Position numbers and translations under genes: made by a program. This document shows, piece after piece, positions 6,515 to 61,384 of a stretch of 61,420 bases of DNA; within the stretch, counting starts at the first letter, position 1, and every line of letters starts with the position of its first letter. The notes beneath the pieces were generated by a model. It saw only the letters and a program-made list of their open reading frames with translations. It was not told the origin of the DNA and did not search any database. The stretch is taken from positions 1 to 61,420 of the forward strand of contig MFMN01000003.1 in NCBI GenBank assembly GCA_001783515.1, given 5' to 3'. The stretch is from Candidatus Kaiserbacteria bacterium RIFCSPLOWO2_12_FULL_50_10. GTDB taxonomy: Bacteria > Patescibacteriota > Minisyncoccia > Phycocordibacterales > UBA918.

Positions 6515-6520
6515 CCCGCG

Positions 6521-6529
6521 AGTATACCA
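6521..6529 (-). promoter_or_regulatory. Extended -10 box TGGTATACT, 6 nt upstream of mgtE ATG (leaderless type)
   Basis: The reverse complement of agtatacca reads TGGTATACT, followed by CGCGGG and then ATG (6514). Confidence 0.6.
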
Positions 6530-6625
6530 CAGACTTCTTCCAAAATTGGTCCATCTGCACTGCTTTTTCATATTTTTAACCTCCGCCGTATTGTGTATAC
6601 GTCTGCGGTCAAAAATATGAAAAAT

Positions 6626-6655
6626 CAGCACATCTGAACTCAATTTTGAAAGAAG
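6626..6655 (+). repeat. Family-1 palindromic element, right-arm fragment
   Basis: CAGCACATCTGAACTCAATTTTGAAAGAAG matches the right end of the copy at 35585-35704 (about 23/27 by eye). No left arm is present. Confidence 0.55.
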
Positions 6656-6709
6656 TCTCCCGCACAAGAAAAATGCCATGGGTTACCATGACATTTTTCA
6701 ATTTTGAGA

Positions 6710-7303
6710 TTAAATCTTACCAACAAGGTCAACAGAGGGGGCGAGTGAGTCGCTGCCGTCGTCGAAGTTTGCAGGGCAGACGTTGCCGGGGTGTGATGCG
6801 GTAAACTTTGCGGCCTTGAGCTTGCGGAGAGTGTCCTTTGCAGAACGTCCAATTGAGCCGTCGGTGATTTCGATCGTCTTGATAACGCCTTCGGGGCTAA
6901 TCACAAACGTACCACGCTGCGCGAGACCATTCTCAGGAATAAGCACCTCGAATGCTTCCGCGACAGCATGTGACGAGTCAGCACCCATTGGGTATTCGAG
7001 CATCTTCATGGTTGGAGAAACTTCCTTCCAGACTTTGTGTGCGAAGGCCGTGTCGGTTGACATTGAGAGGACTTCCGCTCCTTCCTTCTTAAAGTCAGTG
7101 TAGAGTGACTGCATGTCTTCGAGTTCGGTCGGGCAGACAAAGGTGAAGTCGGCTGGGTAAAAGAGGAGGACGGTCCAAGAACCGCGGAAGTCAGCGAATG
7201 TCTTCGGTGAAATCTTCCCCTCATGGAATACTTCAAACGCGAGATCTTCCGGCACTACTTCGCCAATCTTCGGTTCAAAAATATCAAAATCATAATTATC
7301 CAT
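6710..7303 (-). CDS. Peroxiredoxin (typical 2-Cys Prx/AhpC family)
   Basis: 197 aa with the peroxidatic motif FTFVCPTE and a C-terminal resolving Cys (GNVCPANF). Confidence 0.85.
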   Translation of the reverse strand: MDNYDFDIFEPKIGEVVPEDLAFEVFHEGKISPKTFADFRGSWTVLLFYPADFTFVCPTELEDMQSLYTDFKKEGAEVLSMSTDTAFAHKVWKEVSPTMKMLEYPMGADSSHAVAEAFEVLIPENGLAQRGTFVISPEGVIKTIEITDGSIGRSAKDTLRKLKAAKFTASHPGNVCPANFDDGSDSLAPSVDLVGKI

Positions 7304-7338
7304 AGGATTACTTTACATTTTAAACTAATACTTTGGCA

Positions 7339-7347
7339 TGGTAGCAT
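7339..7347 (+). promoter_or_regulatory. Extended -10 box TGGTAGCAT, 6 nt upstream of miaA ATG
   Basis: The sequence reads tggtagcat, aatttt, then ATG (7354). Confidence 0.5.
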
Positions 7348-7353
7348 AATTTT

Positions 7354-8253
7354 ATGAAAAAGCAAAAGGTGGTAGTTATTGTCGGGCAGACAGCATCAGG
7401 AAAGACAGCGCTTTCGCTTGAGCTCGCGCAGAAAATTGGTGCTGAAATTATATCAGCAGACTCGCGGCAGGTGTACCTTGGTATGGATCTCGGGAGCGGA
7501 AAAGTTACCAAAGAGGAGCAGGCTATCGCACTGCATCACCTACTCGACGTTGCTGATCCCAGAAAAGATGTCTTTACGGTTGCAGATTTTGTGGAGCAAG
7601 GAAGTGAAATTCTTGACAAAACTCTGAAGCGTGCTGTTACCCCGATCATTGTTGGCGGTACATTCCTCTATGTTGATGCGTTACTCGGCAAAATAAGCAT
7701 ACCGAAAGTTGCCCCGAACGAGGAATTTCGAGCATCGCTCGAAACATGCAGCAACGACGAACTCTTTGCGATGCTTGCACAAAAAGACGCTCGTCGAGCT
7801 TCTGAGATTGATAAGTATAATCGCGTACGTCTCGTACGTGCGCTCGAAATAATTAACACGCTTGGTTCTGTTCCTGAGGTGATGCCAAGTGAGAAATACG
7901 ATGTGTACACCATTGGGCTTTCCATAGAAAAAGAAAAACTTCACGAACGTATCCATACCCGCCTCCTCCAGCGTTTTGATGAAGGAATGATAGAAGAAGT
8001 TACACGGCTCCATGAGGAGGGTGTGTCATGGGAGAGGCTGCATAGATTCGGTCTTGAATATCGTCATATTGCTGCGTACCTCCAGGGAACTATCCCCAAC
8101 AAAGAAGCACTCATCGCAACGCTCGATCAAGACATTCGGTCGTTCGCAAAACGACAGATGACGTGGCTTACGCGTGACAAAACGATTCACTGGTATCCCT
8201 TTGATGCGCACGAGCAGATCATTGCTGATGTCGAAGGATGGCTTGCTGCATAG
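7354..8253 (+). CDS. miaA: tRNA dimethylallyltransferase
   Basis: 299 aa with P-loop VGQTASGKTALS and ISADSRQVYLGMDLGSGK, the MiaA signature. Confidence 0.9.
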   Translation: MKKQKVVVIVGQTASGKTALSLELAQKIGAEIISADSRQVYLGMDLGSGKVTKEEQAIALHHLLDVADPRKDVFTVADFVEQGSEILDKTLKRAVTPIIVGGTFLYVDALLGKISIPKVAPNEEFRASLETCSNDELFAMLAQKDARRASEIDKYNRVRLVRALEIINTLGSVPEVMPSEKYDVYTIGLSIEKEKLHERIHTRLLQRFDEGMIEEVTRLHEEGVSWERLHRFGLEYRHIAAYLQGTIPNKEALIATLDQDIRSFAKRQMTWLTRDKTIHWYPFDAHEQIIADVEGWLAA

Positions 8254-8302
8254 AATATTTTCCACACCTCTATTTCTGCACTACGTGGTAGTATGTGAGG
8301 AG

Positions 8303-10048
8303 ATGGTTTCAGAGGTAGCACATCGTGCAGGATATGATCTTTCAGAGTGGCGAAGTATCGCGACGCTTCTTGCTGATGCAAGGAAGAGGCTTTCCTCTGA
8401 TGCATACCCAGCATTTTATGCTGCAGTCACCGCGTACTCACGCAGTCGGGGGACTGACACCGCAGCGCTCGCCGAGATTGAATCAGTGCTTTCACAGTGG
8501 GGCAAGGCGCCTACGGCTCCAGCTGTCGCGAAGGAAGCTGGAGTCCACGACGCGGATGCTGATGCCGTACTTGCTGCCGCGGTACAAGAAGCTCAAAAAA
8601 CCCCTGAGGTGCGTGCAGAAGAAAAACCTAAACAAGAAGCAAGAGCAGTGACCCTCGAGGAAGCGCCGCAAAAGCTACTCACTATCGATGAAGCAAAGGC
8701 AAGAATTTTAGTTATTAAGAACGAAATTCACGAACTCATCGGTAACCCCGTCGCGCTTATCGGCGATATGGGTTCGCTCGGAAAGGACTACATGAAGGCG
8801 CTCCTTGGAGCGTCGCGTGCGACAATGGGCGGTGCAGGAGGGGGGCTTATGCCTGCTATGCGAGCTCTGGAAGACGCATATGAAAAACTCCGCACCGCAG
8901 CCATCGAAGGTACGGTTCCTGCAAAAGAAAAGGCTGAACCTGTAGTGGTGACCCCTCCCGAAGCGGCGCCGTTGCAAGAGCAAGAAGAAGCGCTTGAAAA
9001 AGAACCGGAGAAGGTCAGGAGCGAAGAATCACACGCTGAGACTAGGGGTGTAGAAAAGGAGGCAATGGCAGAGCCCGTACACTATGATGATGAAATTCGC
9101 TCGGCACTGAGGGCACGTAAAGAGGAGATCTCTGAGCCCAAGAAACAAGAAGAACCAGAATCGCTCCTGCTTATAAAACCCGAAGTAACGCAGGAAAGAT
9201 CCACCTCTCACGAAGTCATGGAGCATGAACCGCTCGCCAAGGACGAACTCGAAGTGCATGAGCCTACGGAGAGCAAAGAAGAAGAGAAGAAGGAGGATGT
9301 TCCGTTACCTCTGGAGGAAGTGCTCATGCGTCAAGATGCGGAGCCTGCCGAAGAGGGTCTTGGGCGTGAAGAGGAGTCGTCACTTCACCGTGTAGCGCCG
9401 AAAGAGGGGGTGGTCGTGTCGGGTACCGATGACGAGATTGAAGCGTTACGCAAGAAGCTCATGCTCCTCGAGGCTCGACTGGAAGAAAAGGTAGCGGACC
9501 CTAAAGAGCAATCGATAGCGATGTCTCCAGAGACATCACCACAAAGAGAGCCAGCAGAACACCGCACAGAAGCCCCTGCTGCTGCTAAGTCTGTCGCTCC
9601 GAGCCGTGTCTCACGTACGGTTCAGAAAGAGCCCGTGCGCAGTCCGCGTGCGGATACGGTAGTATCATCACAAAAAGCTGCTATTCCCACAAAGGAGATT
9701 GCAACCTTCGTCGATCGCACCGAAAAAGAAAAGCTCTACCAGTCTGAAGCAGTTACCGAAGGACTTCGAAGTTTGCTTATGAGCTGGGAGATATTTCGCG
9801 GAGGTTTTCTCAGTGGAAAAGAGCGCGGTAGAGAGCATCCGTTGTACAAGACGATGCGTGAGGTTGTCATGAGCGATATTCTTTCAGGAAAATTTCAGGG
9901 CGCAAAGACAAATGTTGTTATTTCTGCAAACGACTATGTGAACGCATGGCGGTTCGAGCAGGGTATTGAATATAATCCCGCAGAAACGTTTGAGCACTAT
10001 CTGCGACGCATTGTGCATCGTATATTAACCCGTGCAGGTGAACTCTAA
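8303..10048 (+). CDS. Acidic Glu/Lys/Pro-rich hypothetical protein with conserved-looking C-terminal domain
   Basis: The track ORF 8174..10048 overlaps the miaA end. ATG 8303 is preceded by TGGTAGTAT plus 8 nt. The central part is low-complexity and E/K-rich; the last ~120 aa are ordinary in composition. Confidence 0.5.
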   Translation: MVSEVAHRAGYDLSEWRSIATLLADARKRLSSDAYPAFYAAVTAYSRSRGTDTAALAEIESVLSQWGKAPTAPAVAKEAGVHDADADAVLAAAVQEAQKTPEVRAEEKPKQEARAVTLEEAPQKLLTIDEAKARILVIKNEIHELIGNPVALIGDMGSLGKDYMKALLGASRATMGGAGGGLMPAMRALEDAYEKLRTAAIEGTVPAKEKAEPVVVTPPEAAPLQEQEEALEKEPEKVRSEESHAETRGVEKEAMAEPVHYDDEIRSALRARKEEISEPKKQEEPESLLLIKPEVTQERSTSHEVMEHEPLAKDELEVHEPTESKEEEKKEDVPLPLEEVLMRQDAEPAEEGLGREEESSLHRVAPKEGVVVSGTDDEIEALRKKLMLLEARLEEKVADPKEQSIAMSPETSPQREPAEHRTEAPAAAKSVAPSRVSRTVQKEPVRSPRADTVVSSQKAAIPTKEIATFVDRTEKEKLYQSEAVTEGLRSLLMSWEIFRGGFLSGKERGREHPLYKTMREVVMSDILSGKFQGAKTNVVISANDYVNAWRFEQGIEYNPAETFEHYLRRIVHRILTRAGEL

Positions 10049-47506: not shown

Positions 47507-47548
47507 ACGGTTTGGAAGCAGTCTCCACAGACTGTTTTTAGTCGCGCG

Positions 47549-47557
47549 TGGTACAAT
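47549..47557 (+). promoter_or_regulatory. Extended -10 box TGGTACAAT, 8 nt upstream of ATG 47566
   Basis: The sequence reads tggtacaat, ctctgcac, then ATG. Confidence 0.55.
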
Positions 47558-47565
47558 CTCTGCAC

Positions 47566-50500
47566 ATGAAGATGATGCGCGCACTCAACATAGCTCTCTT
47601 TTCTCTCGGCGTATTTTTCATGCCGGTTTCTGTGCATGCAGCGGTTCAGTTTATTGGGGCGACAACAGGCACGAACTCTGCGACGATGCCTGCGGGCGTG
47701 CAGGTAGGCGACATTCTTATTGGTGTGGGCTACCGTGGACAAAACGCAACACCTGTCGGCGTTCCTTCAGGATGGACTGCGATCGATCCGAGCAGCGGTA
47801 GCAACAACAATTCGTCGCGTATTGGTTTTATCTATGTCACCAGCCCCACTATGTCGCTCGGTAATTGGGCGAGTGCAAATAAGGTGATTATTACTGCGTA
47901 CCGCGGCGTACGCAGTGACTACAGTGCGACGAATCTCCCCAATTTTGCAGGTGTATGGACGGGGGCAAGTGCTACTGTTTCATTTCCCTCACTCACACTC
48001 GCCGGCACAACGAACACCTCGCATATTCTTTGGTTCGGGGGGCAACGTGCCACACAGACCTTCTCTATACCGACATGGTCACGAGCGGGAACTATCCGCA
48101 TGCAGTCATCAGGAACAAACGGTTCTATTGTGGCTGCTGACACAAACGGTGTGACCGCGAACGGTTCGTCCATTTTTATGAACACGTCGTCGTCGCAGCA
48201 GTACCGCACGTACGCGATTGAAGTAGAGAGCGCGACACCGCTCGAGCCAACAATGACGCTAGCCGCACAAAATACCACCGTTGCGCTTGGCGGATCAACC
48301 GCACTCACCTGGTCGTCAACCAATGCAGCTTCCTGTACCGCGTCGGGAGGCTGGAGCGGAACCCTTAGCGCCAGCGGTTCGCAGACCGTCGGTCCAATAA
48401 CGCAGAGTACCACCTTCACCCTTGCTTGTTCGGGGGCACAGGGTACGGCAACGTCGTCAGTGACGGTGGTGCCAGGAATCACCGTCGACAATGTTCTTAC
48501 GACAGACCAGGGTTTTCAGGTGTATGCATTCAATGCGAATGGTACACTTTCAACAATTGCGCGGAAAACAGACTTCCCGGCAGGGTACGGTGTTGTAGGG
48601 GGGTGGAGCAGTGTCGAGATTGACAATGTAGGCGGCGCCTCAGAGCTCTTGCGTGTTATTTTTGATAATCCTGCAACAACTACACAGGTACAGGTTGCTT
48701 GGGCACAAGCAGCCGGTCCCTCAGCTATGTATACGCTGTATAACGCTGACGGTATCTTTGTTGCCTCCGGTACAATACCGACAGCGGGCACAGACGGTGT
48801 TGATGACCCAGTAACGCTCGATGCAGGCGGTCAGTCATATTCGCGAATAGATTTTACGGCAAACCTTGACAGGAACTTTATCATTCACAGTATTCTCCTA
48901 CCTGACGGACTTATTGTTGGTGCAGATCCCGTGGTTACTTCAATTGCCGCAATCGGCACGAATGCGGCACGCGAATATACAGTAGGTGACACCGATGGAC
49001 TCATACAGCTTATTGGTACCGATTTCGGAACCACCGCAGGCGCCGTAGTCTTTTCGGGTACATGGGGCACAGCGACGGGAACCATCCATACAACTGCCGA
49101 GGGCTCGTGTGCTGTTGGCGACTTCACGGACACCTCGGTGTGTGTTGAAGTGCCGAGCAGCATTCCTGATGACGTATATACAGCGACCGTTACGCTCGTG
49201 CGTGCAGACGGTGCGGTTGCAACAGCGCCAACACTCACCATTCTTCCTCGCATTACAAGCATGACACCGACGACAGTTTTGGAAGGTGATACCATTACTA
49301 TTGCGGGCAATCACCTCTGCCAGACCGGCACCTGCCCGACAGTATTCGATGCAGGTAATACGATTACGATTGGCGGTGTTACGGCGACGCTTGTCTCATG
49401 GTCGCATACGGGGATTGTGGTGACGGTGCCGTCTGGTATTTCAGCAGGTGTAAATACAGTAACGGTAACAACAGGTGGGACCGCAATTACTGCGGGTTCT
49501 GTCACATTTACCCCACCGCCAACGCTGAATCTCACTGCTGCAGCGACAGTCGTTGCGCTCGGTAGCGCGACGAACCTCTCGTGGTCAACAACAAACGCTA
49601 CATCCTGTAGCGCTTCAGGAACATGGGATGATGTTACGCTGTTTAATGGTGCAAATTGGGTTTCAGGACAAAATAATGGAAGAGCAATCAGTATGAATGG
49701 TACTAATCAGTATGCGGCGGCACCCACCGGCGTTGTCGCGACTGCTGGTGTCACGACTATCTCCGCGTGGGTTAACATGAACTCCCTAAGCACCTGGATG
49801 CGTATATTCGATTTTGGGACAGGAACAAACAACTATATGTTCTTGGCGCCTCGTGGCGGTAGCAATGTGATTCGTTTTGGTATACGAACGCCAGCAGTAG
49901 GTGAGCAGCAGATAAACGGTACCGCAGCACTCCCGACAGGCGGCTGGCATCATGTTGCGGTAACGATGAGCGGCACAACCGGTGTGCTCTATGTTGATGG
50001 TGTACAGGTTGGCAGCAACACAAACATGACACTCACGCCGTCAAGTCTTGGCAACACCACGCAAAACTGGATTGGTCGCTCACAGTGGCCGGATCCATAT
50101 CTCAATGGGCTCGTACAAGATTTTCGTATCGACACGGGCGCATTTACCGCCGCACAAATTACTGCGCTTATGCAAGGAACAGCAAGTGGCGCAACGACGA
50201 TCTTCGCAATAGGCAGCGGATGGAGTGGTGCCTTGGGAACATCCGGCACACAGTCAACAGGCGCTATTACTGCGCCAACAACATTCTCACTTATGTGTAC
50301 CGGCCCCGGCGGCAGCGCATCGTCATCGGTTACGGTCTCGCCAGTTAGTGCGGCAACCGTTTCTCTTACGGCGTCGCCAACAAGCGTTAATCTCAATGGC
50401 ACTTCAACACTTTCCTGGTCGGCAACGGATGCAGATAGCTGTACGGCAACAGGCGGCTGGTCAGGTCCGCTAGGGGCTTCTGGCTCGACATCAACCGCGC

Positions 50501-52638
50501 CGCTTGCAACGTCGACCGTCTTTGGTATTTCTTGTACCAATATCAGCGGCACGGTACTTGCATCGACGACAGTTACGGTTACGCAGCCGCCAACAATCAC
50601 GGGAAGTGGTAACGGCTATACAAATACTACCAACACGGCAGTCAACGACGGCGGCGCTGCCCTCGACAGCATTACTATTACGGGAGAAAATTTTGGTGCA
50701 CAATGCGATACGGCAAACTTCATCACCATCGGTGGCTACCAGATTCCTTGTGCGAACGTGACGAGTTGGACGACAACCAGTATTACGTTTACCATTCCTG
50801 CATCTATCGACAACCTTGGCGGAACTGGAGTCAACGGACTTACCATCACTACAGGCGGACAAACGTCAACGCCAGTAGATTTTGTGGTGTATCCAAGCAT
50901 TACCTCGATTGCAGCACCAAGTACGAACAGTGGCGCAGAAGGAAGTGTTATCCAGCTCATAGGTTCAGCATTCGGCACAGGCGCAGGAACTATCACGTTC
51001 TCAGGCTCATGGGGGACGGCAACCGCAACGATTCAGTTGACCGCGAGCGGTTCGTGTACTGTCGGCGGGTGGACAAACACCTCTGTCTGTGTGACGGTGC
51101 CCGGAGGTATTCCTGATGACGCGTATACCGCAACCATCACCCTCGAGCGCACTGATGGGGCAGCGGCAACGGCGCCGACATTTACCATTGCGCCACAGGT
51201 AGCAAGTATGTCGCCAATGTCAGGTGTTGCCGGCGATACTATCACTATTACAGGTAATCATCTTTGCCAAACGGGCACCTGTCCAACATCGTTCGATGCA
51301 GGGAATATCATCACGATTGGTGGCGTTACCGCAACGCTTGTTTCGTGGTCACATACCGGTATTGTGGTGACCGTGCCGCCTGGCGTTACGATTGGCGCGA
51401 ACACGGTTGTTGTTACTACGAATGGAGTTTCCATTGGTGCGGGTACGTTGAACGTGCTTAGTACCACGCCCAATACACCAGACATCTCGGGCGTGGGAGG
51501 AACCGGGCAGTTTAGTAATGGAAGTGCTGTGGCAGTTGGTGAGGCCGCTGCATCGTCAACGGTGACCTTCACCGCATCACTGAGCGCACAAACGTCAGCA
51601 ACGCTCGCACTTGAAGTTGAAGTAAAGCCGGTCGGTACAGCATTTGATGCATCGGGTATCTTTGTCGGGGGCTCGGTACTCTACAGTGGCGCAGCGGTGC
51701 TTGGTAGTGTGACGTCAGAGCTCAGCAATAATGCGTCGTATCACTGGCGGGCACGAGTGCGCAATGTAAGTACGAATGAAGTCTCTGCATGGGTTGCGTT
51801 CGGCAGTAACCCCGGAGGCGACGGCTCTGGCGATGGCGAGCCTGCGAACATAGACCTCACCATCGCAACAGGCGGGCCAACCGTGAGCGGCGTCGGTACT
51901 GGCCCTGGCTGCACCGCGCATGATTTGGTGAAGGATACCTCGGCGCGTATTGCATGGACTGCGTCGTCAATTCTCTCGCCGATTGCGAATAAAGTTCGCC
52001 TTGCAACGTCGTCATCAATGGCAGACTTTGTTGAGTATCCTGCATCAAACGGTACCGCACCACAGGTAACGCTCACCGGCCTCGTGGCCGAGACGGCATA
52101 CTACTATCAGGTCATCTCACAAGACTCACTCGGCACCGAAACGATACTTCAGGAAAACGAACCGCACTGCACCTTCATTACCGAGGAGGCCTCAAAGCGT
52201 ATCAACAAGCTTTCCGAGTTCTATATTTGTCAGATGCATGCGCAAGACGAAGTATGGACAGGAGGTTCGGGCGTTACCTGTATTTCAGGCGACGACGGTG
52301 CAAAAACATTCAATGTCTTCGTCTCCGAAATGGTTGCGTCGAAGCCGGTGGTGCAAACCTCCGCATTCGTTGAAGTCTTCGGTATTGCAGAAGCCTCGGG
52401 CGACTTCACGGTCACGGTCAACGTCAACAATATCGGACCAAAAACAATCACGGTGAAAAACCCACAAGGTTCAATACCGTATCGAGTACTGTATCATTTG
52501 CCCGACGGCTACAATCTCGATTTTCCCGCAGACACGAGTGCCTCAAACCTCCTTGATGTGCAGGTGAGCGGTGCGGATACGGTGTCCTCAATGGGGGCAA
52601 AGGCAATACTAAACTATTACTATTTCCCAACATACTGA
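47566..52638 (+). CDS. Giant secreted adhesin-like protein (~1,690 aa): signal peptide, Ig-like Cys-pair modules, IPT/TIG-like repeats, LamG domain, FN3-like domain
   Basis: MKMMRALNIALFSLGVFFMPVSVHA signal peptide. The LamG segment is WMRIFDFGTGTNNYMFLAP..GGWHHVAVTMSGTTGVLYVDGVQVG. ITIAGNHLCQTGTCP repeats and an FN3-like ARIAWTASS..TGLVAETAYYYQV are present. Confidence 0.75.
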   Translation: MKMMRALNIALFSLGVFFMPVSVHAAVQFIGATTGTNSATMPAGVQVGDILIGVGYRGQNATPVGVPSGWTAIDPSSGSNNNSSRIGFIYVTSPTMSLGNWASANKVIITAYRGVRSDYSATNLPNFAGVWTGASATVSFPSLTLAGTTNTSHILWFGGQRATQTFSIPTWSRAGTIRMQSSGTNGSIVAADTNGVTANGSSIFMNTSSSQQYRTYAIEVESATPLEPTMTLAAQNTTVALGGSTALTWSSTNAASCTASGGWSGTLSASGSQTVGPITQSTTFTLACSGAQGTATSSVTVVPGITVDNVLTTDQGFQVYAFNANGTLSTIARKTDFPAGYGVVGGWSSVEIDNVGGASELLRVIFDNPATTTQVQVAWAQAAGPSAMYTLYNADGIFVASGTIPTAGTDGVDDPVTLDAGGQSYSRIDFTANLDRNFIIHSILLPDGLIVGADPVVTSIAAIGTNAAREYTVGDTDGLIQLIGTDFGTTAGAVVFSGTWGTATGTIHTTAEGSCAVGDFTDTSVCVEVPSSIPDDVYTATVTLVRADGAVATAPTLTILPRITSMTPTTVLEGDTITIAGNHLCQTGTCPTVFDAGNTITIGGVTATLVSWSHTGIVVTVPSGISAGVNTVTVTTGGTAITAGSVTFTPPPTLNLTAAATVVALGSATNLSWSTTNATSCSASGTWDDVTLFNGANWVSGQNNGRAISMNGTNQYAAAPTGVVATAGVTTISAWVNMNSLSTWMRIFDFGTGTNNYMFLAPRGGSNVIRFGIRTPAVGEQQINGTAALPTGGWHHVAVTMSGTTGVLYVDGVQVGSNTNMTLTPSSLGNTTQNWIGRSQWPDPYLNGLVQDFRIDTGAFTAAQITALMQGTASGATTIFAIGSGWSGALGTSGTQSTGAITAPTTFSLMCTGPGGSASSSVTVSPVSAATVSLTASPTSVNLNGTSTLSWSATDADSCTATGGWSGPLGASGSTSTAPLATSTVFGISCTNISGTVLASTTVTVTQPPTITGSGNGYTNTTNTAVNDGGAALDSITITGENFGAQCDTANFITIGGYQIPCANVTSWTTTSITFTIPASIDNLGGTGVNGLTITTGGQTSTPVDFVVYPSITSIAAPSTNSGAEGSVIQLIGSAFGTGAGTITFSGSWGTATATIQLTASGSCTVGGWTNTSVCVTVPGGIPDDAYTATITLERTDGAAATAPTFTIAPQVASMSPMSGVAGDTITITGNHLCQTGTCPTSFDAGNIITIGGVTATLVSWSHTGIVVTVPPGVTIGANTVVVTTNGVSIGAGTLNVLSTTPNTPDISGVGGTGQFSNGSAVAVGEAAASSTVTFTASLSAQTSATLALEVEVKPVGTAFDASGIFVGGSVLYSGAAVLGSVTSELSNNASYHWRARVRNVSTNEVSAWVAFGSNPGGDGSGDGEPANIDLTIATGGPTVSGVGTGPGCTAHDLVKDTSARIAWTASSILSPIANKVRLATSSSMADFVEYPASNGTAPQVTLTGLVAETAYYYQVISQDSLGTETILQENEPHCTFITEEASKRINKLSEFYICQMHAQDEVWTGGSGVTCISGDDGAKTFNVFVSEMVASKPVVQTSAFVEVFGIAEASGDFTVTVNVNNIGPKTITVKNPQGSIPYRVLYHLPDGYNLDFPADTSASNLLDVQVSGADTVSSMGAKAILNYYYFPTY

Positions 52639-55671: not shown

Positions 55672-56289
55672 ATGAAGAAAATTTTGGCAGTCGGGGCTCA
55701 CCCCGACGATATTGAACTCGGATGTGGCGGCACAATTGCTCGCCATGTCGACAAGGGCGACGATGTGTACTGTGTCATCCTCACTCGAGGTGAGCACGGT
55801 GCAACTGACGTCAACCGTCACAAGGAAACACTGAGTGCACTGCGTGTGCTTGGGGTACCTGAGGATAATATTCTGGTGCACGATTTCCCGGATCGGGAAC
55901 TCTTCAAGCATTTGAATGGAATCATTACGGTTCTTGAAGACACCGCGCGACGGTATGCTCCACACCGTGTCTACACGATGTTCAAAGGCGACCGTCACCA
56001 GGACCATCGCACAACCTACGAAGCAAGCGCGGTTGCGTACCGAAAGGTGCCGCAAGTGCTTTGCTACGAAACACCGAGCGCATGGCCTGCATTTGACCCA
56101 CAGATCTTCATCAACATTGGTGAATTTTCGGGGAGAAAAATGGATGCTTTGCGCTGTCACGAATCACAAATGGATCGGGACTATATGAAGCCCGAAACAC
56201 TCGAAATCGCTGCGCGCTTCCATGCACAGCAGATCGGTCTTCGTGATATGTGTGAAGCATTTATGGTTCATAAGATGATTCTTGATTGA
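55672..56289 (+). CDS. PIG-L/LmbE-family deacetylase
   Basis: ILAVGAHPDDIELGCGGTIARH motif. A GAAGGAG site lies 7 nt upstream of the ATG. Confidence 0.8.
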   Translation: MKKILAVGAHPDDIELGCGGTIARHVDKGDDVYCVILTRGEHGATDVNRHKETLSALRVLGVPEDNILVHDFPDRELFKHLNGIITVLEDTARRYAPHRVYTMFKGDRHQDHRTTYEASAVAYRKVPQVLCYETPSAWPAFDPQIFINIGEFSGRKMDALRCHESQMDRDYMKPETLEIAARFHAQQIGLRDMCEAFMVHKMILD

Positions 56290-56319
56290 GCATTCAACCG
56301 ATACACAAAAGGAAACACT

Positions 56320-56940
56320 ATGTGGTGGAAAAATATGGAGCGTGAGCTCGCAACCATCGTAAACGTTATGACTCATATGCTGGGTACGTACGCAGACAGC
56401 AGCGCATCGATTGCGCCGACAGCAGTTCTCAAAGGAGATGTTACTGTTGGTGCAGGCACGAAGATTTGTCACGGTGCATTTTTGCAAGGACCTATCAGCA
56501 TTGGCAAGAATTGCCTCATTGGTAACAATGCCATGTTGCGTGGCCCGCTGAAGATTGGCGACAATGTTCGCATTGGTTTTGCGGCAGAGCTCAAAGGAGC
56601 GGTGCTGCGAGACAATTGTAGCATCGGCCCGCAGTGCTTCGTTGCAGATTCGCTGCTTGAAGAGAAGGTCTATCTCGGCGCGCAAGTACGCACGAGCAAT
56701 CACCGTCTCGACTACAGGACTATCCACAGCGCAGCTGCGGGTGGTCTTGTGGACACGGGGCGCGAAAAACTCGGTGCGTTCATTGGTGCAGATGCCCGGT
56801 TGGGCATTCAGTGCATCACGTTGCCGGGGCGCATTATTGCTCCTGACTCGGTCTTCGGACCGCGAATTACTGTCGAGAAAAATCTCCCGGCAGGAACCTA
56901 CATGTTGAAACAAGTGATCGTGAACACCTCGTGTTCGTAA
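56320..56940 (+). CDS. Left-handed beta-helix (hexapeptide-repeat) acyl/acetyltransferase
   Basis: Repeated [LIV]G..x.I hexapeptides (IGKNCLIGNNAMLRGPLKIGDNVRIGFAAELKGAVLRDNCSIG). An AAGGA site lies 6 nt upstream. Confidence 0.7.
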   Translation: MWWKNMERELATIVNVMTHMLGTYADSSASIAPTAVLKGDVTVGAGTKICHGAFLQGPISIGKNCLIGNNAMLRGPLKIGDNVRIGFAAELKGAVLRDNCSIGPQCFVADSLLEEKVYLGAQVRTSNHRLDYRTIHSAAAGGLVDTGREKLGAFIGADARLGIQCITLPGRIIAPDSVFGPRITVEKNLPAGTYMLKQVIVNTSCS

Positions 56941-56950
56941 AGGAGTTTGC

Positions 56951-57985
56951 ATGAAAACAACCTGCGTTATCGTTCCTGCAAAGGACGAAGCAGTTGTCAT
57001 CGAAGACACTCTCACTGCGCTCCTCGCTACAGGCATTGGCGCAGAGAACATCTACCTCGTTGACGACGGTTCGAAAGACAGCACGGGAGACATCGGACGA
57101 AAGCTCGGCGTCAACGTGTTGCGGAACGAAGTAAACATCGGCAAGGCGCACAGCATTGCGCGCGTTGTTGATGTCTTCGAGCTGGATACCAAGTACGAAT
57201 TCATCGGCTTGATGGATGCGGACACCTGTGTTCGGCCCGATTACTTTGAAGCAATGCATGACGGATTCACGAGCCATGATGTGGTGGTGGTGTGCGGGCG
57301 ACCTATCGCTCCGAACTACAACTACATGACGAGCTATCGCGAATTCGTGCATGCCGTGGCGCACTTCATCTACAAGAAAGGGCAGGACAACATGGGGGTG
57401 ATTTCGGTCGCTCCTGGTTGCGCAACCATCTATCGAAGCACTGTCTGGAGAAGTCTTGAATGGAGCAAAGATACGTTGGTTGAAGACGTTGATGTGACCC
57501 TTCAAATCCACAAAAAACGTCTCGGCAAAATCCGCTACTGCCCGAAGGCTTTGGTCTACACCCAGTCACCACGCACGCCGCGCGATTACCTCAAACAACT
57601 CGTTCGTTGGAACACGGGGAATTGGCAGGCGTATCGCAAGCACAAGCTGTACGCGTTCCGTCAAGCGATTGACTTTGAGTGCACGCTGCTTTACGGTGAA
57701 AGTTTCATCTTTTACCTGACCATGTTTTTGGCGCCGGTGTACGGGCTCTATGCTCAAGACTACAAGCTCATGCTTCTGCCGTTTGCACACATGATTCTCA
57801 CGACCGTGTTTGCAGTCATTATCGCAGTTGTCGATAAGCGTCCTGATATTCTCTATCACTCATGGAGGTTTATAGCGTTCCGATACATTGATGCCTATGC
57901 ATTTTTGAAAGGCTTCTGGGTAGCAATCGTCATTCGTAAGGCCGGCGGCAAATGGTTTACGCCAGCACGGTATTCTGGAAAATAA
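56951..57985 (+). CDS. Processive family-2 glycosyltransferase (PgaC/IcaA/NodC/chitin-synthase-like) with C-terminal TM helices
   Basis: Motifs DDGSKDST, MDADT, VEDVDVT and QLVRW (QxxRW), plus 3-4 C-terminal TM helices. An AAGGAG site lies 5 nt upstream. Confidence 0.8.
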   Translation: MKTTCVIVPAKDEAVVIEDTLTALLATGIGAENIYLVDDGSKDSTGDIGRKLGVNVLRNEVNIGKAHSIARVVDVFELDTKYEFIGLMDADTCVRPDYFEAMHDGFTSHDVVVVCGRPIAPNYNYMTSYREFVHAVAHFIYKKGQDNMGVISVAPGCATIYRSTVWRSLEWSKDTLVEDVDVTLQIHKKRLGKIRYCPKALVYTQSPRTPRDYLKQLVRWNTGNWQAYRKHKLYAFRQAIDFECTLLYGESFIFYLTMFLAPVYGLYAQDYKLMLLPFAHMILTTVFAVIIAVVDKRPDILYHSWRFIAFRYIDAYAFLKGFWVAIVIRKAGGKWFTPARYSGK

Positions 57986-58003: not shown

Positions 58004-58756
58004 ATGAAAACCATCCGCTATCGCATCGTCGTTCTGTGCTTGTGCTTTTTCGGGAATGCGTTCGCGCTACCTGATGACTTCCACAAGTACTCTCGAATGG
58101 TGAGCTTCACCTTCGACGATGCGTACAAGTCGGTCGCGACGCATGCCTACCCGCTTTTTCGGAAGCACGGCATACATGCGACCGTCTATCTCGCAACGGC
58201 AACGATGAGTAATCCCGAGCTTTTCCCAGGCTACTTTAGCTGGGATGATGCAAAGGAGGTTGATGTGCATGGCTGGGAAATCGGCGCGCATACGCATATG
58301 CATGTGAATCTTGCAAAATCACCCGAAGAGGCTGCTGCGCAGGAAATCAGTGCGTCGATGCAGTTGTTTCGCGAGCGTGGATTTCGCCCCACTTCGTTTG
58401 CTGCGCCGTATGGCGCAATGCATGAAAAAAGCATGCGTCTCATAAAGCAGAACTATGCATCGCAACGTGATGCATGGGGAGGTGACGGAGTGAATCCGCT
58501 CCCCGTGCAGGACCCTTATCGCATTGTCTCATTGCCACTCAAGGCGACGATGACCATGGCAGATATCCGGGCTGTGCTTGATCGTCTTGAAAAAGACGGC
58601 GGTTGGCTCGTGCTGCAATTCCACGACGTGGGATCGGTAAATACGGGACCATGGTCAACGACGCTCCTTCCGGAGATTGTTGCCGAGGTGCGTCGTCGCA
58701 AGCTTCCTGTTGCGACAGTTTCCGAGGTTCTCAAACATCATTCTTCCACTCACTAA
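58004..58756 (+). CDS. Polysaccharide deacetylase (NodB homology / CE4 domain), secreted
   Basis: Signal peptide, then VSFTFDDAY, HTHMH and other NodB motifs. An AAGGA site lies 5 nt upstream. Confidence 0.8.
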   Translation: MKTIRYRIVVLCLCFFGNAFALPDDFHKYSRMVSFTFDDAYKSVATHAYPLFRKHGIHATVYLATATMSNPELFPGYFSWDDAKEVDVHGWEIGAHTHMHVNLAKSPEEAAAQEISASMQLFRERGFRPTSFAAPYGAMHEKSMRLIKQNYASQRDAWGGDGVNPLPVQDPYRIVSLPLKATMTMADIRAVLDRLEKDGGWLVLQFHDVGSVNTGPWSTTLLPEIVAEVRRRKLPVATVSEVLKHHSSTH

Positions 58757-58769
58757 CCAAGGAGTTTCC

Positions 58770-59519
58770 ATGAAAAAGATTCTGATTGCTACCGCAGCTG
58801 TCACTGCACTCAGTGCAGCGTACGCTGAAGAAACGAACAAGTACCCTGGCTCGTCCTGGGGCTCCATCGGCAACACGTCACCCTCGGAAGAGGGGAACGT
58901 GCTCGCGACGGTTCATGTCGAACAAGGCGTGGTGCTCAAAAAAAGCAACACGCTGACGATGGTTCCGTTTGTCTCCGCAACGGTGTCGAAAGACAGCGAC
59001 GGGCATGACTGGAACAACAAGGCGATTCTCCGTGCGGGCATCAAGCTCGAACGTGCGCTCTTGGGTGGTTCGATTGCGCTACGCCTCGGCGTTGCGCATG
59101 AAAATCGCTTCTCGTCGCACGAAACAGCGTCATCGCCCTACATCTCAGTTGGCCATTGGTTCGGCTGGGGTCATGGCACGCGCTCCCCGGGTTCGACCTG
59201 GGGGCAGCTCGGCTATGGCACGTCGCCAGGGGAGAAGAACAACACCGCTCTCATGGTGCATGCCGAGCAGGGCATCTACGCAACGAAGGTTGGTTCCGGG
59301 AAACTGGTGCCGTTCGTTGATGCGACGATTGCCCGCGACAGCGAAGGCTACGACTGGAACAACAAGAACCAGCTCGGCGCCGGCGTGAAGTACGCGCTGC
59401 CTGTGGCAAAGAACGGCACGCTGAATGTGGGTGTCAAGTACACCCACGAGACCAAGACCAGCTCTGACGTTTCGGCGTCGAATGTGGGCATTTTCGCAAA
59501 CTACTGGCTCGGCTGGTAA
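58770..59519 (+). CDS. Secreted protein with outer-membrane beta-barrel-like features and internal 2x ~95-aa duplication
   Basis: Signal peptide MKKILIATAAVTALSAAYA, alternating amphipathic beta-strand patterns, and C-terminal ..FANYWLGW. An AAGGAG site lies 5 nt upstream. The fold call is inference. Confidence 0.45.
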   Translation: MKKILIATAAVTALSAAYAEETNKYPGSSWGSIGNTSPSEEGNVLATVHVEQGVVLKKSNTLTMVPFVSATVSKDSDGHDWNNKAILRAGIKLERALLGGSIALRLGVAHENRFSSHETASSPYISVGHWFGWGHGTRSPGSTWGQLGYGTSPGEKNNTALMVHAEQGIYATKVGSGKLVPFVDATIARDSEGYDWNNKNQLGAGVKYALPVAKNGTLNVGVKYTHETKTSSDVSASNVGIFANYWLGW

Positions 59520-59548: not shown

Positions 59549-60319
59549 ATGAGTATTGGAACACCAGTTGGCGGCTGCTCAGGACTTCTGCATGTGGTTG
59601 CCTCGTATCCGAAAGTTGCGGCGTGCGCTGCGATTCTCGGTCTCGGCGTTGGTGTGAACGTGCTGACGCCTGATCAAGAGGCTAAGTGCGACAAAGCGAT
59701 TGCGCAGTGCCAAGGCACGGCGCAGCCTCCCGTCACACCTCCGCCTGCTGCAAAACCGCAAAGCACGCCGCCTCCGGAGGCTGTTGCAATGCCTGTACCG
59801 TCACCGCCACTGCCACAAGCAGTGGTACTCGACATGTGCGCAGGTGCGCCCATTATTACCGACGCTGACCTCTTCAAGGTCGTGGGGCCGGTACATGTCT
59901 GGCGGCGCGCGGCTGTCGATCCTGTCCGTGGCAAACCCACGGAGCCGTTTCTGCGTATCCTCGGCTATGCCGCGGAAGAACGCACGGTCTTTCTGAAGAA
60001 GATTGCCGACCGCGACTATTCGCGGACGCTCTTGAAAAAGGGAAGTTCCGTCGGACGTTCAACGTCGGGGAATGGCACCTACCATGATGCGGTCGTTGTC
60101 GGTTGGAACCCTGTGGAAAACACGGGCACCAATTACAAGAACGACGCACGCATGAACGTCTACACGTACACGCACAAAGCCATTTACAACGGCGACTGTG
60201 TTGAACGTACGGTGACACTCCTCGAACCACTCGTGTGCCAGAACTGGTCGCGGGTGAGCGATGTGCTTCGCATCGTGCAGTCCGCAGCAGACCGCCAGAA
60301 GGCGCCTGCTAAGAAATGA
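59549..60319 (+). CDS. Membrane-anchored hypothetical protein with Pro-rich linker
   Basis: 256 aa with an N-terminal hydrophobic segment, a PPVTPPPAAKPQSTPPPEAVAMPVPSPPLP linker and a globular C-domain. An AAGGAG site lies 8 nt upstream. Confidence 0.5.
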   Translation: MSIGTPVGGCSGLLHVVASYPKVAACAAILGLGVGVNVLTPDQEAKCDKAIAQCQGTAQPPVTPPPAAKPQSTPPPEAVAMPVPSPPLPQAVVLDMCAGAPIITDADLFKVVGPVHVWRRAAVDPVRGKPTEPFLRILGYAAEERTVFLKKIADRDYSRTLLKKGSSVGRSTSGNGTYHDAVVVGWNPVENTGTNYKNDARMNVYTYTHKAIYNGDCVERTVTLLEPLVCQNWSRVSDVLRIVQSAADRQKAPAKK

Positions 60320-60343
60320 TCTTTTTGTTTTGCCGAAAGGCAG

Positions 60344-60372
60344 GCCGCTTCCCAGGGAGGCGGCTTTTTTTT
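60344..60372 (+). terminator. Strong intrinsic terminator ending the polysaccharide operon
   Basis: GCCGCTTCCC-A-GGGAGGCGGC followed by T8. Confidence 0.8.
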
Positions 60373-60407: not shown

Positions 60408-60908
60408 ATGGAGCGCGGGATGTCACTTATTGAACTTCTGGTATATATCGCAATTGTCTCGATTGTGGTTGTGGTGCTTTCAGCGACCTACATTTCCTTT
60501 TTGAATGCGCGCGCAAAGACAGAAGCGGTTGCTATTACCGACACCGCACTTCGCTACGTTGCCGAAACCCTTACCCGCGATGTCGAGCGTGCAACAAGTA
60601 TTGTTACACCGGCGTCGGGAGTTGTGGGAACCTCAACGCTCCTGATGCATGGCTCAAGCACGATTGCCTATGCGCTTCTTGATGGTGCACTCACACGCAC
60701 GGTGGATGGTGTTGCTGAAACACTCACAAGCGACCGAGTCGTGGTCACGCAGTTTGCACTCACGCATACCGAGAATACTCAGGAGGTGACGGGCAGCACG
60801 TTTGACGGACTCAGGTGGCAGCTGCAGGCGGAACATGCCTATGGTGCAAACGAGTACCGTTACGATGCTGCGCGACACGGCGCGGCATCACGAAGAAGTT
60901 TTGAATAA
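60408..60908 (+). CDS. Type IV pilin/pseudopilin-like protein (prepilin N-terminal methylation motif)
   Basis: MERGMSLIELLVYIAIVSIVVVVL contains a G/MSLIEL cleavage-type motif. TATACT plus 6 nt precedes the ATG. Confidence 0.7.
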   Translation: MERGMSLIELLVYIAIVSIVVVVLSATYISFLNARAKTEAVAITDTALRYVAETLTRDVERATSIVTPASGVVGTSTLLMHGSSTIAYALLDGALTRTVDGVAETLTSDRVVVTQFALTHTENTQEVTGSTFDGLRWQLQAEHAYGANEYRYDAARHGAASRRSFE

Positions 60909-60910
60909 GT

Positions 60911-61384
60911 ATGGAGCATAAGAAGACACAACGGAATGATTCCCGAGGCGTAGCACTGCTGCCGCTTGTTTTTGTATTTGCGGGGCTTGTGGTGACGGTT
61001 GCCCTTGCGTTTTCAGCAATTTCTATCGCACAAAGCATTGCCGTTGAGAGTGAGTTTGGTGCGGCGCGCGCTTTACATTACGCGGAGGCAGGGCAGAATG
61101 ATGCGCTTATGCGACTTTCGCGTGATAAAAACTATCGCACTACCGTCGAATACGCTATCCCCTTCGGCACAGATGGCTGCACGCAAAGCATTGCCTGTGT
61201 GTTTGTTACTATCGACGAGACCGCATCAGGAACACCCCGCGTAAGCGCCCGAGGCGTTGCCAATACCAACGTACGCGTACTCGAGCGCCTCGTGCACTTT
61301 GACGAAGCAGGGCAGGGCGCCCACACACAAACAACCTGGTGCGAAGAAGGAAGTTCCGTGGCAGGAGCATGTCCCCAGGACTGA
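60911..61384 (+). CDS. PilX/GspK-N-like minor pilin candidate
   Basis: SRGVALLPLVFVFAGLVVTVALAF is a hydrophobic N-terminus of the PilX_N type. It starts 3 nt after the previous stop. Confidence 0.45.
   Translation: MEHKKTQRNDSRGVALLPLVFVFAGLVVTVALAFSAISIAQSIAVESEFGAARALHYAEAGQNDALMRLSRDKNYRTTVEYAIPFGTDGCTQSIACVFVTIDETASGTPRVSARGVANTNVRVLERLVHFDEAGQGAHTQTTWCEEGSSVAGACPQD

Follow-up and report, generated by a model that had tools for sequence, protein, structure and literature searches.

How does a bacterium with a monoderm-looking genome come to encode, directly behind a polysaccharide synthase and a deacetylase, a protein that resembles an outer-membrane β-barrel? The question is raised by a gene near the end of the stretch of Candidatus Kaiserbacteria DNA analysed here (61,420 nucleotides, the window; Table 1). 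CPR bacteria (Patescibacteria) are regarded as monoderms that have lost the outer-membrane assembly machinery. To our knowledge, all bacteria with transmembrane β-barrels of this type assemble them via BamA in an outer membrane, and we know of no BamA-independent in vivo route that has been established for such a barrel in any bacterium.

Table 1. Features of the barrel operon in the window.
Feature	Position	Strand	Basis or description
PIG-L family de-N-acetylase, BshB1-like	55672..56289	+	Pfam PF02585 E 3.9e-28; TIGR04001 E 4.7e-28, below cutoff
Left-handed β-helix (hexapeptide) acetyltransferase, GlmU C-terminal-domain-like	56320..56940	+	Pfam Hexapep E 2.6e-20; Arch_glmU C-terminal part E 1.6e-38
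Processive family-2 glycosyltransferase (GT2 synthase), 344 aa	56951..57985	+	Pfam Glyco_tranf_2_3 E 1.9e-20, Chitin_synth_2 E 3e-5
Secreted CE4 polysaccharide de-N-acetylase with signal peptide and metal/catalytic motifs TFDD36 and HTHMH96	58004..58756	+	Pfam Polysacc_deac_1 E 6.1e-21
Barrel gene	58770..59519	+	249-aa precursor of predicted 12-stranded outer-membrane-type β-barrel
Putative signal peptide, residues 1–19, cleavage after AYA	58770..58826	+	Read from sequence
Repeat 1, residues 25–133, six strands	58842..59168	+	SPxExxN and DxxGxDWNNK motifs, WFGW end
Repeat 2, residues 138–249, six strands	59181..59516	+	Motifs of repeat 1, YWLGW at C-terminus
DOWN, CPR-only partner, 256 aa	59549..60319	+	N-terminal membrane helix, ~35-aa proline-rich spacer, Cys-containing C-terminal domain
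Terminator-like hairpin closing the operon after DOWN	60342..60366	+	11 pairs (7 G-C), then T-run

The barrel reading frame starts with ATG, with an AAGGAG box 7 nt upstream. An earlier note on this DNA had proposed a signal peptide cleaved at AAYA/EE, and the N-terminus indeed appears to be one, with a KK n-region, a 14-residue hydrophobic core and AYA/EE, and no lipobox Cys; AlphaFold2 models these residues as a helix at low pLDDT. No 19-residue window of the mature protein reaches a Kyte–Doolittle value of 1.6, and thus no α-helical transmembrane segment is predicted. At the C-terminus (...IFANYWLGW), W249, L247, Y245, A243 and I241 occupy positions 1, 3, 5, 7 and 9 from the end, matching the β-signal pattern of a terminal aromatic residue with hydrophobic residues at 3, 5, 7 and 9 that the note had suspected from the last residue. 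This terminal residue is W, F or L in the Kaiserbacteria relatives; in many other family members, GW is followed by a short basic tail.

Residues 21–137 and 138–249 align with 42% identity over 110 aa (BLASTP, E 5e-29), which upholds the duplication reported earlier and lengthens its unit from ~95 to ~110 aa. An HMM of the repeat unit detects it twice in 186 relatives and once in 35. According to the predicted structure, the 12-stranded barrel is the result of the doubling of a 6-strand unit; single-repeat members of the family would have to dimerise.

AlphaFold2 gave an unusable model from the single sequence (pLDDT 31.8), and an alignment of 104 homologues was used instead. The resulting model (pLDDT 94.5, pTM 0.85) has 12 long strands, so that the barrel of amphipathic strands described in the note was retained and its count of about 10 was not. 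Foldseek returned 80 PDB matches at E ≤ 1e-3, and the best 50 of these 80 are all outer-membrane barrels. An exhaustive structural search placed VhGalP and PcoB on top (Z 12.2, rmsd 4.0 Å, 183 and 179 residues aligned, respectively), followed by KdgM (Z 11.4), OmpG, intimin (Z 10.8) and NanC (Z 9.9), with BcsC also among the matches (Z 8.5). Of its best 50 PDB matches, 49 are transmembrane β-barrels, the sole soluble barrel being Rv2717c at rank 46 (Z 7.8). Neither a β-sandwich nor a jelly-roll, the soluble folds that the note had set against a barrel, occurs among these 50 or among the 50 listed Foldseek matches. An independent ESM Atlas model (pTM 0.82) has feature matches to KdgM, NanC and Phage_OMP clusters, and resembles the C-terminal part of Acidobacteriota TPR proteins at TM 0.74.

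The two faces of the predicted strands have very different compositions. The presumed outward face has a mean Kyte–Doolittle value of +2.24 with 0.9% charged residues in the Kaiserbacteria copies, and of +1.96 with 2.2% in the Terriglobia copies; the opposite face has −1.0 and 31%. About 48 positions make up the aliphatic face, with 1% charge. The model is that of a membrane-type, monomeric, 12-stranded barrel with a hydrophobic belt; from packing considerations and the barrels that it resembles, we infer that it is closed and which side of its strands faces outward. One mouth of this barrel probably bears the conserved W/N/N/K/D/E motifs, in two copies.

KdgM, NanC and VhGalP (PF06178), to which the match extends over nearly the whole chain, are small, monomeric, short-looped 12-stranded barrels. 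Known members handle linear glycans, as the present barrel presumably does. There is, however, no detectable sequence kinship: identity to the barrel is 6–10%, and PF06178 matches neither the barrel at E ≤ 0.1 nor any of 104 members at E ≤ 0.01. KdgM-type proteins are moreover uptake channels of Proteobacteria, with no synthase linkage and no 6+6 internal repeat, whereas the present family includes single-repeat members. Searches of Pfam, NCBIfam and PDB sequences with the protein and with a family profile yielded no meaningful match, and none to the non-membrane families that might have spoken against a barrel; the best, AbrB-like (E 0.037) and YedK (E 1.1), were taken as chance. Full-text literature searches found no published description of the family, or of any β-barrel in CPR bacteria.

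The note had placed the barrel gene right after a synthase and a deacetylase, and the genes are indeed tightly packed, co-oriented and preceded by RBS boxes, with gaps of 18 nt between GT2 and CE4 and 13 nt between CE4 and barrel. The PIG-L gene, which opens the same-strand run, stands at the barrel locus in this genome only, and neither it nor the hexapeptide acetyltransferase gene has a counterpart at related loci. The GT2 carries the motifs DDG38, DAD89, ED178 and QLVRW216 (QxxRW); it is unusually small, with about three C-terminal membrane segments and no N-terminal transmembrane helices. Its nearest solved structure is BcsA (E 1.5e-4). In NCBIfam, it matches PgaC_IcaA (E 1e-23) and NodC (E 2.3e-5), and the CE4 protein matches HfsH (E 1.2e-18), IcaB (E 2.5e-7) and NodB (E 5e-5); both enzymes fall below every equivalog cutoff.

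Across the family, the barrel gene nearly always adjoins a processive GT2 with the QxxRW motif, usually together with a CE4 gene. The order is GT2–CE4–barrel in Kaiserbacteria loci, CE4–GT2–barrel in about 40 Terriglobia loci, GT2–X–LysM-barrel in other CPR bacteria and GT2–single repeat in a phage-like contig; at one LysM-type locus (L063), no GT2 is present within the visible 3.5 kb upstream. The GT2 of the window is 42–47% identical to the barrel-adjoining GT2 of most Terriglobia loci and 37.5% identical to that of a Vicinamibacterales locus. Type IV pilin-like genes lie directly downstream of the operon here and at a second locus (L006).

A processive GT2, a periplasmic or secreted deacetylase and a β-barrel encoded together are also the hallmark of systems with the export porins PgaA, BcsC, PelB and AlgE. 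Those porins, however, have 16–18 strands together with a TPR scaffold, either built in or as a partner, and the family described here also occurs in organisms without an outer membrane. Thus, the PgaA-like slot that the note had assigned to the barrel stands as an operon position, next to genes for a PgaC-like synthase and for a CE4 protein and conserved across phyla, but not as homology to PgaA, since the barrel has 12 strands rather than 16 and no TPR. An NCBIfam scan of the barrel returned no family at all from a library that includes models for the other pga-operon proteins PgaB and PgaC. The Gram-positive PNAG (IcaADBC) and Pel systems are likewise monoderm systems in which a GT2 synthase is paired with a CE4 deacetylase that is secreted, in keeping with the weak IcaB and PgaC_IcaA matches. 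We know of no β-barrel component in these systems; here, in contrast, a barrel is retained and under selection.

The note had described a monoderm-looking genome, with no other outer-membrane biogenesis gene in the window, and the absence holds across the whole genome (819 kb, 95% complete). Omp85, LptD, LpxC, secretin, OmpH/Skp, OEP/TolC and TamB were all absent from it, in searches that were positive in diderm control genomes and that found Omp85 in every control, including Thermotoga and Deinococcus. Two sortases are encoded. By its gene content, this genome is monoderm, as are those of three other CPR carriers: PF01103 (BamA/Omp85) is found in none of these four, and three times in one Terriglobia carrier. 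A homologue of a CsgG-like channel is also encoded in the Kaiserbacteria genome. The protein therefore has the signal peptide, the predicted barrel and the β-signal of a BAM substrate in a cell without BamA/Omp85 and, by gene content, without an outer membrane, and, given a genome without outer-membrane machinery, would have to fold without BAM.

The family comprises 325 clusters at 50% identity. It has members in some of the Terriglobia, a diderm group, and in several CPR lineages. It is rare: none of 400 genomes sampled from the phylum of the window carries the barrel, and neither does any of 150 evenly sampled Acidobacteriota genomes (12 candidates per genome scored), the latter ruling out that it is common in Acidobacteriota. 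The set of related loci is biased to close relatives because the search was keyed on one motif. A word-index search found no long fusions of 721–2055 aa, which is weak evidence against large fusions.

The CPR copies are under purifying selection, with dN/dS values of 0.22 between the window and L006 and of 0.30, at dS 0.63, between the CPR loci L007 and L008. The reading frame is intact in at least five CPR species at 40–72% identity. In trees of the half-repeats, the Kaiserbacteria clade lies outside the Terriglobia clade for both halves; deep supports are low (0.45–0.78), and hence we claim no transfer donor. In both trees, the CPR copies form a single, monophyletic clade that branches deeply, which argues that the barrel is no recent arrival. 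Its GC3 of 0.72 ranks 8 of 583 long reading frames (genome mean 0.54); this is suggestive of a foreign origin, but codon bias would explain it equally well.

The product of the gene behind the barrel, DOWN, has its transmembrane segment at residues 16–34 and has no match in Pfam, NCBIfam or the ESM Atlas. It is 41% identical to the product of the gene that follows the barrel in another Kaiserbacteria genome, and is also encoded at L005, L006, L008 and L056, with, by eye, a shorter protein of similar N-terminus at L059; among 5.8 billion proteins, only 7 clusters were found. Elsewhere in CPR bacteria, three relatives (P0019, P0068, annotated as Candidatus Paceibacterota, and P0097) combine an apparently uncleaved membrane anchor, LysM, a ~100-aa Pro/Glu/Ala-rich linker and the barrel in one protein. 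DOWN would correspond to the anchor, LysM and linker of these fused forms, split off as a protein of its own, and, judging from this domain architecture, probably serves as a tether for the barrel.

Two groups of known proteins have a comparable layout. Intimin and invasin combine LysM with a 12-stranded barrel, and the CPR relatives with LysM, a coiled coil or spacer and a barrel resemble them; the barrel protein of the window, however, ends at its last strand, with no passenger, and LysM is found in relatives only. OmpM/SlpA (SLH, coiled coil, barrel) share with the CPR relatives the order of peptidoglycan-binding domain, spacer and barrel, but the barrel here is smaller. From both groups, the CPR fused forms differ in their apparent uncleaved anchor, their ~100-aa proline-rich linker and their BamA-less carriers.

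Taken together, we think it probable, if by no means assured, that the barrel forms the distal part of a synthase-dependent module for a HexNAc polymer, where it serves as conduit or anchor for the glycan and works without BAM. As judged from motifs and family, the GT2 would make a β-linked, probably HexNAc-based chain at the cytoplasmic membrane, which the secreted CE4 protein would partly de-N-acetylate. The fold, conservation and gene linkage of the barrel suggest that it threads or holds this chain at the outermost hydrophobic layer, through a lumen that is polar and charged in the model. In Terriglobia, this layer is the outer membrane; in the Kaiserbacteria, the co-transcribed DOWN protein, with its membrane helix, proline-rich spacer and globular head, probably holds the barrel beyond the wall. 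The LysM domain found in 24 of 104 relatives provides a lead towards GlcNAc. A point against this reading is that Gram-positive PNAG and Pel systems work without a barrel, which therefore is not needed for the export of such a polymer from a monoderm.

The note had left a choice between a secreted lectin and a diderm-like envelope component, to which we add a third option: the barrel, secreted or displayed on a long tether, would insert spontaneously in the outer membrane of a Gram-negative host, for attachment or as a nutrient or glycan channel where the two cells touch, with the GT2/CE4 polymer as the adhesin. We consider this unlikely, though the strongest of the alternatives. The anchor, LysM and ~100-aa proline-rich spacer in front of the barrel in other CPR carriers, the anchor and spacer of DOWN, the pilin-like genes immediately downstream here and at L006, and the fully kept hydrophobic belt of the CPR copies would all suit such a role, and ultrasmall cells without an outer membrane have been seen attached to Gram-negative hosts in cryo-TEM (PMC7906910). 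The same module, however, is found in Terriglobia, which have genomes of 5 Mb and for which a host plays no part, and so strict an association with a synthase speaks for a role in glycan handling over a general pore.

A cryptic second lipid layer in these CPR lineages, with the barrel as a genuine outer-membrane protein that LysM or DOWN would tie to peptidoglycan, seems distinctly improbable. The order of peptidoglycan-binding domain, spacer and barrel does parallel known tethers between outer membrane and peptidoglycan, such as OmpM/SlpA in diderm Terrabacteria (PMC10628300, PMC9388160), and the CsgG-like channel would fit as well. Against it stand the absence of Omp85, present in every diderm control, and of Skp, TamB, LptD, LpxC, TolC and secretin, the presence of sortases, and the absence of the barrel from all 400 sampled genomes of the phylum; CPR bacteria are placed in a monoderm clade, and imaged CPR cells had no outer membrane (PMC7906910).

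Marginally less probable still is a barrel that is inserted in the cytoplasmic membrane from outside, as translocation pore for the minimal 344-aa GT2. The small size of this enzyme, its lack of N-terminal transmembrane helices and the adjacency of the two genes in almost every lineage would agree with such a pore, but the long wall-spanning linkers of the fused forms put the barrel far from the cytoplasmic membrane, and the Terriglobia carriers possess an outer membrane that can house it. Furthermore, an open 12-stranded pore would dissipate the proton motive force, and we know of no β-barrel in a bacterial cytoplasmic membrane.

The lectin of the earlier note, a soluble secreted β-sandwich that binds the polymer, with the aliphatic face as the core of a flattened barrel, is now very unlikely. 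It is conceivable that the 6-stranded halves pack against each other as a pair of sheets, and the conserved Trp/Asn/Lys/Asp motifs resemble sugar-binding residues; yet two independent predictors give a round barrel, neither structural search has a sandwich or jelly-roll among its best 50 matches, the contrast between the aliphatic and the charged face is a membrane-barrel signature and the C-terminal pattern resembles a β-signal. A functionless passenger of horizontal transfer, as the high GC3 and patchy distribution might suggest, is scarcely credible and largely refuted by the selection data; the intact reading frame, the co-conserved CPR-specific DOWN gene and the deep, monophyletic CPR clade in both half-trees also speak against it.

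Returning to the conduit or anchor, a wider and rather doubtful extension of it would have an unnamed family of outer-membrane-type barrels diversified in CPR/Patescibacteria, where some BamA-less, one-membrane cells might assemble a classical β-barrel outside their cytoplasmic membrane, in the lipid of another layer: the outer membrane of the host on which they ride, or an outer layer of the CPR cell that has so far escaped notice. At the site of contact, the barrel would be coupled to a HexNAc polymer that the cell secretes. The CPR types would then be the Kaiserbacteria barrels, whose anchored partner is TonB-like, two types fused to LysM with wall-spanning linkers of ~100 aa, and the single-repeat type.

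In soil Terriglobia, GT2, CE4 and the 12-stranded barrel represent a new, minimal three-gene module for synthase-dependent polysaccharides. The family also offers a clear case of a barrel grown by 6+6 strand duplication, with single-repeat relatives still extant, where barrel duplication has so far been documented from 8 to 16 strands (PMC10629564). Above all, a conserved and selected barrel with an intact, presumed lipid-facing belt in several CPR lineages provides a concrete molecule for three questions: whether such barrels can do without BAM for folding and function in vivo, what makes up the outer boundary of a CPR cell, and how CPR epibionts fasten to their Gram-negative hosts.

The product of the barrel gene, the 249-residue P0001, has a typical N-terminal Sec signal peptide (KK, hydrophobic core, AYA/EE) and lacks a lipobox. 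The internal duplication claimed in the earlier note was borne out: the two halves share 42% identity across 110 aa (E 5e-29), and a 112-position HMM of the repeat detects it twice in 186 relatives and once in 35. AlphaFold2 run on the single sequence gave a pLDDT of only 31.8; an alignment of 104 relatives was used instead, with which pLDDT reached 94.5 and pTM 0.85. The structure predicted for P0001 has six strands in each repeat, 12 in all, which are long and antiparallel with short connections between them. Foldseek returned 80 PDB matches at E ≤ 1e-3; all among the matches listed are outer-membrane barrels, with the 12-stranded barrels of autotransporters, intimin/invasin, PcoB, and VhGalP at the top. 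An exhaustive structural aligner run over 48,161 chains placed VhGalP and PcoB first (Z 12.2; rmsd 4.0 Å; 183 and 179 residues aligned), followed by KdgM (11.4), OmpG (11.0), intimin (10.8), and NanC (9.9). Transmembrane barrels fill 49 of its best 50 rows, the other being the soluble barrel Rv2717c (Z 7.8); these 50 include neither a sandwich nor a jelly-roll. The ESM Atlas has its own model of P0001 (pTM 0.82), whose structural neighbors agree; its language-model features name KdgM, NanC, and Phage_OMP, and the model matches ~650-aa Acidobacteriota TPR proteins in their C-terminal part with a TM of 0.74.

Every strand of the barrel alternates between two faces. In the Kaiserbacteria copies, one is aliphatic, with a mean Kyte-Doolittle value of +2.24 and 0.9% charged residues, and the opposite face has a value of −1.0 and 31% charged residues. 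Because a plugless 12-stranded barrel has no room inside for ~48 aliphatic side chains, we read the aliphatic face of the model as a probable lipid-facing belt, and the CPR copies are no less hydrophobic there than the copies from Terriglobia, the diderm carriers of the family. The C-terminus is indeed β-signal-like, as had been suggested: counted back from the end, residues 1, 3, 5, 7, and 9 are W, L, Y, A, and I. Each repeat has the conserved motifs SPxExxN and DxxGxDWNNK. By the usual topology rule for barrels, the N-terminus lies on the inner side; the motifs would therefore sit in outward-facing loops, with a ring of Trp, Asn, Lys, Asp, and Glu at the outer mouth.

The family has no sequence match in Pfam, NCBIfam, or the PDB, and searching 1.84 billion representatives with its profile gathered 325 clusters. 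Besides the plain two-repeat form (240–300 aa), there are single-repeat proteins (135–160 aa) with their own signal peptide, located between other genes, which would have to dimerize to close a barrel, and extended forms (~440–580 aa) with N-terminal additions: LysM in 24 of the 104 aligned members, SPOR, collagen, or TPR in a few. The family is rare wherever searched. It was found in 1 of 200 sampled genomes of the window's order and 2 of 61 around a LysM-type carrier (the query genome and one relative); none turned up among 400 further genomes sampled from the window's phylum or 150 from that of the Terriglobia carrier. A tree of separated half-repeats falls into two clans, most N-halves versus most C-halves, so the duplication is old. 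In each clan, the 13 Kaiserbacteria-type sequences form a single clade (support 0.99 and 0.93) outside the Terriglobia clade, and a distinct Kaiserbacteria copy (L009) lies elsewhere; since deep supports are weak, we name no donor. The barrel gene has the 8th-highest GC3 (0.72) of 583 long ORFs. It is under purifying selection within CPR, with a dN/dS of 0.30 at dS 0.63 for one pair of CPR copies and 0.22 between the window and its nearest relative.

In the window, six genes lie close together on the same strand, and the barrel gene is the fifth.

Features of the barrel operon and its surroundings in the window
Feature	Position	Strand	Remarks
1696-aa secreted protein	47548-52638		large internal duplication
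PIG-L deacetylase	55672-56289	+	first gene of run
Hexapeptide acetyltransferase	56320-56940	+	second gene of run
GT2 synthase	56951-57985	+	third gene of run
CE4 polysaccharide deacetylase	58004-58756	+	fourth gene of run
Barrel gene (P0001)	58770-59519	+	ATG start, AAGGAG box upstream, 249 aa
DOWN	59549-60319	+	sixth gene of run; 256 aa, no family assigned
Hairpin	60342-60366		11-bp, G+C-rich, with T-run; 3' end of run
Two type IV pilin-like genes	60408-61384		immediately 3' of operon terminator

GT2 has the hallmarks of a processive synthase (DDG, DAD, ED, QLVRW), and CE4 has a signal peptide, TFDD, and HTHMH. Their nearest models are PgaC/IcaA, NodC, chitin synthase, HfsH, and IcaB; as scores stay under every equivalog cutoff, the polymer is not assignable from models. 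The PIG-L deacetylase and GlmU-C-like acetyltransferase (55672-56940) occur at this locus in the window genome only, where they may change the sugar precursor; the nearest relative has DprA and then GT2 directly. DOWN, found only in CPR (7 clusters known), matches no family; its membrane helix is followed by a proline-rich spacer and a head that contains Cys. Its layout, with an N-terminal TM helix and a globular C-terminal domain, is TonB-like, and its N-terminus has a conserved GGC(S/C)xxxxH. The pilin-like genes, with an N-terminal LIELLV-type hydrophobic segment, are syntenic in another locus (L006; 64–66% identity). The 1696-aa protein contains the block around GDTITIxGNHLCQTGTCPTxFDAGNxITIGGVTATLVSWSHTGIVVTVP twice; its counterpart at a related Kaiserbacteria locus has TIG domains.

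Several independent Kaiserbacteria assemblies share the order GT2-CE4-barrel-DOWN, and ~40 Terriglobia loci have CE4-GT2-barrel, with GT2 42–47% identical to that of the window. In one Terriglobia locus (L019:6578-10539), the barrel gene is followed by two genes with overlapping starts; the product of one (709 aa) has a weak M48 peptidase motif and that of the other (611 aa) is galactose/glyoxal-oxidase-like. Both may be additional partners that modify the polymer. The fused CPR form comprises a membrane anchor, with or without a coiled coil, LysM, a ~100-aa Pro/Glu/Ala-rich linker, and the barrel. Such LysM-type loci carry GT2, an unassigned protein of 228–291 aa, the LysM-barrel, and an unassigned protein of 143–148 aa; one (L063) has no GT2 in the 3.5 kb visible upstream. 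The two extra genes hold conserved positions; a Pfam scan gave no match for one pair (L055:5852-6727, 8442-8873), and another (L064:5641-6327, 7944-8390) has no precomputed Pfam match on record. In L059, from a CPR genome belonging to the same order as the window, the arrangement is GT2-CE4-single repeat and then a short gene (L059:1964-2461) resembling DOWN by eye only. A 211-kb contig (L057; JGI 3300025597) carries GT2, a single repeat, two small ORFs, CE4, and GH16 at 5877-9685; given its strong phage-family matches (phrog_114 DNA ligase, E 1.8e-116; phrog_4339, E 2.4e-93; phrog_38499; ribosomal protein S21), a jumbo phage may carry the module too.

The window genome (819 kb, 28 contigs, 95% complete) has two sortases but none of Omp85, LpxC, LptD, secretin, OmpH/Skp, OEP/TolC, or TamB; each search had matches in diderm control genomes, as for Omp85 in Thermotoga, Deinococcus, and Thermus. 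Omp85 is likewise absent from three other small-genome carriers, one of them LysM-type, and one Terriglobia carrier has three Omp85 genes. An assembly artefact was ruled out for the cassette: 15 contigs, the longest of 653 kb, encode the identical protein, and the flanks show synteny with a second Kaiserbacteria genome. The barrel's closest relatives are annotated Candidatus Kaiserbacteria (Patescibacteria/Parcubacteria group) and one LysM-type member Candidatus Paceibacterota; the 60 genomes nearest to the LysM-type small-genome carrier without Omp85 are all 0.4–1.0 Mb. CPR are regarded as monoderm (10.1101/2021.05.31.446380; PMC12102498), and cryo-TEM of ultrasmall cells attached to Gram-negative hosts showed a surface layer without an outer membrane (PMC7906910). 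The window genome also encodes a CsgG-like protein with a signal peptide (PF03783, E 7.9e-9, above cutoff), on its sequence a second outer-membrane-type channel homologue in this BamA-less genome. Immediately 3' lies a gene for a 221-aa secreted protein with VxQGVGAxAMS-type repeats reminiscent of curlin. No GC3 values in the genome exceed those of the pair (0.75 and 0.87; contig C15:40651-42236; L062:4652-5467, 5572-6237), which adjoins PrgI and TraC/VirB4-like type IV secretion genes.

The likeness to PgaA noted earlier holds for the place in the operon but not for the family, as the barrel has 12 strands versus 16, no TPR domain, and no profile match. The barrel would function as a glycan channel of KdgM or NanC size, but it is no member of their family by profile. 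A BamA-bearing host is one defining context of ordinary outer-membrane proteins, and this barrel lacks it. For Terriglobia, a minimal synthase-dependent system is the simplest and most likely reading: GT2 would polymerize and translocate the chain, CE4 would then remove acetyl groups, and the chain would leave through the outer membrane via the 12-stranded barrel or be held there, a role equivalent to that of PgaA, BcsC, or AlgE, although the barrel is smaller and unrelated. CPR keep the same three genes, joined by a fourth element that is either fused (anchor-LysM-linker) or split (DOWN, as in the window). Both forms would keep the barrel outside the wall and away from the cytoplasmic membrane, which speaks against a location in that membrane and favors a distal lipid layer: the outer membrane of the host or an unrecognized layer of the CPR cell. 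The barrel family and the minimal exopolysaccharide module are both new; the surprising part is their occurrence in CPR.
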